Below are positions 8,309 through 8,333 of a stretch of 11,694 nucleotides of DNA, one piece after another (the stretch's first letter is position 1; every line of letters begins with the position of its first letter). Under the pieces are notes generated by a model. It searched no databases and was not told where the DNA came from. It was given only the letters and a program-made list of their open reading frames with translations. Position numbers and translations under genes: made by a program. This stretch comes from a virus (taxonomy: Duplodnaviria > Heunggongvirae > Uroviricota > Caudoviricetes): the IMG/VR virus record IMGVR_UViG_2671180437_000003, positions 1-11,694 of that record; one strand, 5' to 3'.

Positions 8309-8333
8309 AACCCGCCGCGTGCGGGTTTTTTAT
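8309..8333 (+). terminator. Hairpin plus T-run upstream of the major tail protein gene
   Basis: AACCCGC (8309-8315), loop CGCGT, GCGGGTT (8321-8327), followed by a T-rich run; AGGAGG at 8338-8343 then ATG 8348. Confidence 0.55.

Follow-up and report, generated by a model that had tools for sequence, protein, structure and literature searches.

Terminator-like hairpins are a recognised feature of lambdoid late operons. The genome paper on phage L states that intra-operon terminators occur in lambdoid late operons, such as those of L and P22, calls their roles unknown and offers two options for them, namely the stopping of unmodified polymerase and partial attenuation (PMC8022706). Q proteins ride with RNA polymerase, and their nozzle on the RNA exit channel blocks terminator hairpins over tens of thousands of nucleotides (PMC9388147). 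For conjugative-element antitermination, Tn916 and the Bartonella gene transfer agent, the portions of the literature available to us describe several same-strand terminators in one long operon that modified polymerase alone expresses, the terminators insulating it against premature expression. These systems use other antiterminators in other hosts and serve as an analogy only.

Among individual phages, HK446 (GenBank JQ086372) carries between its gp11-like and major tail subunit genes a hairpin (6645-6670) annotated as 'rho-independent terminator', and its operon has five further annotated terminators, one of them before the tape-measure gene. The junction hairpin of HK97 (39,732 bp) is identical in sequence to that of HK446. 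In lambda, a hairpin GGCCGC-CTGT-GCGGC followed by T7 stands directly before the major capsid gene E, and a hairpin with a T-rich tail also precedes J (lambda sites 6080-6134, 7161-7201 and 15445-15504). Lambda E itself has no obvious Shine-Dalgarno sequence, only a second T7, and is followed by a T-less hairpin. Hairpins with T-rich tails were also found before the protease-capsid gene of Pseudomonas phage PAJU2 and before the protease gene of Moraxella phage Mcat3, and no such hairpin was found before the protease-capsid/protease gene of Burkholderia phage SBP9. T-less hairpins follow the major tail gene in HK446 and in a Klebsiella phage (ST13-OXA48phi12.4).

Here we describe a hairpin, h2, located before the major tail protein gene in a stretch of 11,694 nt (the window). 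As in the phage L and P22 operons, terminator-like hairpins lie here inside a single-promoter, Q-antiterminated operon. The window and HK446 share the order hairpin, T-run, Shine-Dalgarno sequence and ATG at the junction of the tail-completion and major tail genes, and the HK446 stem AACCCGCC/GGCGGGTT can be aligned with AACCCGC/GCGGGTT of the window. The two differ in the loop and in stem length and stability (9 bp and −16.1 kcal/mol in HK446 versus 7 bp and −10.6 kcal/mol in the window), and the additional terminators annotated after the capsid and tail genes of HK446 are either absent from the window or present there as a hairpin with no T-run. Lambda, unlike the window, has no counterpart at U/V (a 7-nt gap) or T/H (an overlap). 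Intra-operon hairpin positions are lineage-specific among lambdoid late operons. Because HK446 already has this element annotated as a terminator, h2 is an ordinary, already annotated kind of feature.

The late operon and the hairpin before the major tail gene

The window contains fourteen late genes of a tailed phage, all co-oriented on the + strand and spanning from terS to the tape-measure gene. They encode, in order, the terminase small and large subunits, a prohead protease-major capsid fusion, a small ORF, the portal, a 299-aa ORF, the head-tail connector, a head closure protein, a gp10-like protein, the tail completion protein, the major tail protein, the tail chaperones G/T and the tape-measure protein, of which only the start is included. 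The window shares 98% identity with E. coli prophages of the long-tailed Stx-converting kind and related ones, and it constitutes the late operon of a lambdoid, long-tailed prophage of the Stx type. In the complete relative NC_049945 (98% identical), a Q-like antiterminator gene is followed by the stx, lysis, terminase, head and tail genes, and the late genes are co-oriented except for one small reverse-strand gene, which is the layout of a standard lambdoid late operon. The window starts only at terS, and the presence of Q upstream of the co-oriented late genes was established via NC_049945. A consensus scan found no sigma-70-like promoter on the + strand of the window. Close relatives annotate the major tail gene as the major tail subunit, and their annotated start coincides with the ATG given in Table 1.

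In the portal region (4562-6822), relatives annotate a single 859-aa 'portal protein', and the window has two ORFs in different reading frames joined by ATGA. The first 454 aa are 95% identical to the relatives, and the remainder is 62% identical and about 325 nt shorter. The difference may reflect a genuine split, a frameshift or, on the side of the relatives, a fused annotation.

Table 1. Positions of the hairpins, neighbouring signals and genes in the window
Feature	Position	Strand	Remark
Hairpin h1, GAACCGC-TGCG-GCGGTTT	2374-2391	+	upstream of the protease-capsid fusion gene (Pfam Peptidase_S78 and Phage_capsid)
T7 A T4 of h1	2389-2400	+	
AGGAGG downstream of h1	2402-2407	+	
ATGTGA	2411-2416		one-codon start-stop ORF overlapping the protease-capsid GTG, just past AGGAGG
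GTG start of protease-capsid fusion gene	2413	+	
Stop codon of capsid gene	4348-4350	+	
Hairpin GCGGGA/TCCCGC	4365-4386		10-nt loop, no T-run, just past the capsid gene stop
Portal region, first ORF	4562-5926	+	
Portal region, second ORF	5923-6822	+	
Tail completion/tail terminator gene (gp17- or HK97 gp11-like)	7945-8289	+	Pfam Tail_completion_gp17; annotated tail terminator/gp17 in relatives
Stop codon TAA of tail-completion gene	8287-8289	+	
Spacer from stop codon to hairpin	8290-8308	+	no conserved columns in relatives
h2, 5′ arm AACCCGC	8309-8315	+	
h2, loop CGCGT	8316-8320	+	
h2, 3′ arm GCGGGTT	8321-8327	+	
T6 of h2	8326-8331	+	first two T inside the stem
U-tract TTTTTTATTAT	8326-8336	+	directly after the G-C core of h2
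Shine-Dalgarno AGGAGG	8338-8343	+	4 nt before the ATG
Start codon ATG of major tail gene	8348-8350	+	
Major tail (tube) protein gene	8348-9064	+	C-terminal Ig domain; Pfam Phage_TTP_11, Phage_tail_2, Ig
Hairpin h3, GAAAACCTGC-TGTG-GCAGGTTTTT	9767-9790	+	directly before the tape-measure gene
T8 of h3	9786-9793	+	
GGAG downstream of h3	9798-9801	+	
ATG of tape-measure gene	9810	+	

The preliminary description had reported, from the letters alone, a 7-bp stem with a T-run upstream of the major tail gene, and our analysis found both in place, the T6 being followed by ATTAT. The hairpin lies in the 58-nt gap between the tail-completion and major tail genes. Its stem comprises seven pairs (five G-C and two A-U, with the G-C core CCCGC/GCGGG) closed by a 5-nt loop, the fold energy is −10.6 kcal/mol, and the hairpin is the top match of the consensus terminator scan in the window. 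As expected of an intrinsic terminator, the G+C-rich stem-loop lies on the transcribed strand, the + strand like all the genes, and a U-tract within the usual length of about 7-9 nt stands immediately 3′ of the stem, TTTTTTATT adjoining the G-C core. A bidirectional terminator was rejected for want of a T-run on the reverse strand. RNase III substrates consist of about 20 bp or more of double-stranded RNA, and the 7-bp stem of h2 does not fit a processing hairpin of that kind.

Recurrence and conservation of the hairpin

The window was scanned for similar structures at two levels of stringency. A loose consensus scan gave 10 matches versus 9.8 expected, so that the window is not enriched overall, and the local folding energy around h2 was weak (z = −0.22 over 66 nt and −1.93 over 30 nt); these two measures alone do not rise above chance. 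Under a strict rule of at least six pairs, at least four of them G-C, and at least six T among the 9 nt that follow the G-C core, three matches were obtained on the + strand (h1, h2 and h3) and none on the − strand, versus 0.17 expected per strand from dinucleotide shuffles, and none of 300 shuffles reached three. This rule is a revision, the initial version having missed h1 with its 4-bp G-C core. The fold energy of h1 is −10.7 kcal/mol (0 of 200 shuffles as stable), and that of h3, which the preliminary description did not mention, is −12.5 kcal/mol. The consensus scan had returned h3 on the minus strand only because its A/T-extended stem swallows the T-run. Intergenic DNA amounts to 265 of the 11,694 nt, and the three hairpins occupy the three longest gaps, of 63, 58 and 52 nt; seen from the other side, wherever this densely packed operon leaves a gap of some size, the gap is there to house such a hairpin.

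What settles the case against chance is the conservation of h2 across relatives. About 320 loci with 93 distinct junction sequences were collected with four major tail proteins as queries, that of the window and, from more distant relatives, those of HK446 (70% aa identity), Klebsiella phage ST13-OXA48phi12.4 (62%) and ECP1 (49%); a scan of a genome collection with the tail protein returned only four loci, two of them informative. A GC hairpin with an immediate T-run, accompanied by a ribosome-binding site, was kept in 87 of the 93 distinct junctions, which represent four lineages with tail proteins 48-100% identical in amino acids. The six exceptions were four rare variants in which the stem had one mismatch or had lost a base, one lineage (11 loci) with a C-A mismatch in the stem, and one rearranged locus. 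In the alignment of the junctions, the hairpin, the T-run, an invariant GGAG and the ATG were conserved, and not one column was conserved in the spacer from stop codon to stem. That hairpin and T-run were kept beside a fully diverged spacer argues for selection on the hairpin itself.

The stem is conserved as a structure with changed sequences, about 35 distinct stem-loop variants being present among the junctions. When the structure of the window was laid on the alignment, 84.6% of the cells were paired, versus 42-58% with the partner slid, and most unpaired cells trace to a single lineage that MAFFT shifted by one column. Both partners have changed in the two outer aligned pairs (C-G/A-U and A-U/G-C; 45 cells), a level that none of 500 shuffles reached, and these compensatory changes reflect few independent, lineage-level events. 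The G-C core of h2 is invariant in close relatives, most of which carry ACCCCGC as the 5′ arm, leaving the 5-bp G-C core only. With so short a stem and just this core in most close relatives, the element may be weak as a terminator.

The geometry of the junction is also constrained. The gap measured 52-71 nt, the distance from stop codon to stem 16-34 nt over 86 distinct junctions (median 18, never shorter than 16) and the distance from stem to ATG 18-24 nt. A spacer of at least 16 nt would leave room between the stem and a ribosome that terminates translation of the upstream gene, and the remainder of the gap would be the minimum that accommodates the U-tract and the ribosome-binding site. 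The sequence comparison shows both junction geometry and hairpin to be under selection across several phage lineages. Over 654 kb of related loci, strict matches occurred at 0.37 per kb on the coding strand versus 0.06 per kb on the opposite strand, a sixfold difference, and clustered at the tail-completion/major-tail junction, before the tape-measure gene and around the capsid gene. Of 5,426 complete E. coli genomes, 1,245 (23%) carried an h2-type element, in up to eight copies each, the features listed for these matches being the two flanking genes only.

Several details of the spacer and of single loci are recorded here. Among near-identical prophages the spacer is hypervariable and the T-run length is polymorphic; most of them carry CTTTTTCTTTTTT(T)CTACAAAA in place of the TTTTTTCAACAGAA of the window. 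The likeness of this stretch to the 5′ portion of the isrD consensus in Rfam (UUUCAACAGAAAC) is probably fortuitous. In locus L051 (1-295), the hairpin is lost and the ATG is joined directly to a sequence that lies about 1.2 kb further upstream in the sister locus L016, which is probably a deletion in a defective prophage.

The architecture of hairpin, T-run, AGGAGG and start codon that the preliminary description had seen again before the capsid gene was borne out at h1 (T7, AGGAGG and a GTG start), and its view that the recurrence exceeds chance agrees with the strict scan and with the conservation. The regulatory logic it supposed to be shared held in one part: terminator-type hairpins do punctuate a co-directional late operon. 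The link it drew to abundant structural proteins does not hold as a rule, as h3 precedes the gene for the low-copy tape-measure protein, terminators or hairpins in HK446 also follow the major capsid and major tail genes and precede other genes, and lambda has hairpins before E and J and none before V. At the h3 junction a terminator is also found in HK446 (annotated), ECP1 and the Klebsiella phage. A bond between the hairpin and the gene downstream of it did find support. A hairpin stands before the protease/capsid gene whatever lies upstream, be it terL (the window and PAJU2), portal (HK446) or a hypothetical gene (Mcat3). Likewise, in locus L025 (1-125) unrelated sequence extends to about 12 nt before the hairpin, and the hairpin stays with the tail gene. 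As a separate observation, the ATGTGA at the GTG start of the protease-capsid gene may compete with or tune initiation there.

Proposed function and alternative readings

We consider it probable (about 0.65) that h2 is an intrinsic terminator that stops ordinary polymerase, is read through by Q-modified polymerase and insulates the virion genes. The element sits in a Q-controlled late operon, packed as tightly as possible between its two genes. Polymerase without Q, coming from spurious or moron promoters or by read-in, either in the lysogen or early in infection, would allow the hairpin to form in the RNA exit channel and would be released at the U-tract, leaving the tail genes unexpressed. 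Once Q had been loaded at the late promoter, the hairpin could not form, and read-through would follow. With just 20 nt between stem and ATG, and a + strand on which the scan detected no promoter-like site, the major tail gene has no promoter of its own, and read-through is the sole route to the abundant major tail protein. Together with its sisters h1 and h3, h2 would keep the virion genes silent unless Q had acted, insulation being the role under selection. In the mRNA, the hairpin and U-rich tract may in addition stabilise RNA ends or aid translation. Against this reading stands the same lack of a sigma-70-like promoter on the + strand, since the scan thus points to no source in the window for the unmodified polymerase that would need stopping.

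Transcript data come from the same operon in prophage PP6 of EPEC E2348/69. In RNA-seq of the lysogen this operon was almost silent, with mean counts of about 1-34, as the insulating role would predict. The length-normalised density before versus after the hairpin stood at about 4x and 3x, ratios that are built on single-digit mean counts, too few reads to reveal a step, and on our own gene-length normalisation. Separately, the PP6 capsid gene E2348C_1422 had a mean of 34 reads in the non-activating condition versus 0.4-13 for its neighbours, and it changed significantly in the hfq comparison (log2 −1.7, adjusted p 0.014), which may point to a transcript of its own within the capsid gene or antisense to it. 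A Term-seq dataset exists for E. coli O157 Sakai (Sy et al. 2020; PMC7547250).

The alternative that fares best, though we hold it to be somewhat unlikely, places the function after transcription. The hairpin would protect an RNA end, either as a 3′ exonuclease barrier for the head-gene segment or, once an endonuclease has cut, as a 5′ stem-loop on the tail-gene segment, and the U-rich tract with the strong Shine-Dalgarno sequence would form an S1-binding translational enhancer raising the output of the major tail (and capsid) protein, an activity compatible with termination. Such a module would explain why the hairpin accompanies the downstream gene where the upstream gene differs, why the distance from stem to ATG is so tightly fixed, and why h1 and h2 have TTTTTTATTnTCAGGAGGC and the two strongest ribosome-binding sites in common. 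The T-less hairpins after the capsid gene of the window and after the tail gene of HK446 and the Klebsiella phage cannot terminate, which suggests that hairpins as such are useful. Sampson et al. are said to have concluded in 1988 that translation initiation, not mRNA level, sets relative late-gene expression in lambda; our literature search for a lambda ribosome-profiling paper found none. The same module does not account well for the third copy, which precedes a low-copy gene, and a T-run immediately after the stem is a specific need of termination.

Partial attenuation, the second option in PMC8022706, is improbable in our judgement. Q-modified polymerase would still terminate at times, and each hairpin would lower the mRNA dose for the genes further on. 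The position of h3, downstream of the tail chaperones and ahead of the tape-measure and tip genes with their low-copy products, is where dosage should fall. At h1 and h2, however, attenuation would be counter-productive because the two most abundant virion proteins are encoded directly downstream, and Q complexes are termination-deficient over tens of kilobases (PMC9388147).

It is very unlikely that h2 forms the 3′ end of a small Hfq-binding RNA released from the end of the tail-completion transcript, in the manner of the prophage sRNAs of pathogenic E. coli. A hairpin with a U-tail is indeed an Hfq-binding module, and an Rfam search of the region gave weak matches over 8236-8332 to the Salmonella island sRNAs isrK (RF01394) and isrD (RF01388). 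Their scores of 24.7 and 22.7 bits are far under the gathering thresholds of 50 and 37, respectively, so that membership in either family was rejected; these matches and one to the Trp leader, the only ones found and all sub-threshold, were driven mostly by the terminator stem. PasB, a validated Hfq-dependent sRNA of the same prophage type (locus L334, E2348/69, about 4257-4496), lies in the I/J gap on the opposite strand, which indicates that sRNA genes can occur in the gaps between genes of lambdoid tail operons. It differs in sequence and its gap is outside the window, where the complement of the PasB probe was absent even at three mismatches, and identity with PasB was rejected. The known EcOnc and Pas sRNAs lie after the late promoter or, for PasB, in the I/J gap on the other strand, and none lies at the h2 junction. 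Moreover, no promoter-like site was found upstream of h2 on the + strand, and the tags of the flanking genes, E2348C_1428/1429, are absent among the RIL-seq interactions listed.

Equally unlikely is an evolutionary leftover with no present function, either the terminator of a lost moron (a promoter-gene-terminator insert) or a conserved linker at a module recombination joint: in HK446 and the Klebsiella phage the terminator before the tape-measure gene does come after a small additional gene (gp15-like, YebO), and the L025 breakpoint lies close upstream of the hairpin, but no examined relative has an extra gene at the tail-completion/major-tail junction, the 58-nt gap of the window holds neither an ORF nor a promoter-like site, and hairpin and T-run have outlasted the adjoining spacer.

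Implications for phage late operons

As a discovery h2 is minor, and as annotation it is useful. We also entertain, as a doubtful extension, that the cassette of hairpin, U-tract and strong Shine-Dalgarno sequence serves two uses as a portable 'gate and boost' module and moves together with high-copy virion genes. If this were true, the terminator would make the expression of the capsid and tail-tube proteins strictly dependent on Q-loaded polymerase, and the transcribed stem and U-rich tract would stabilise the mRNA end, recruit ribosomes and help to set the stoichiometry of the virion proteins. It would also give a function to intra-operon terminators. The h2 junction is a well-defined site for asking what role such terminators play in antiterminated phage operons.
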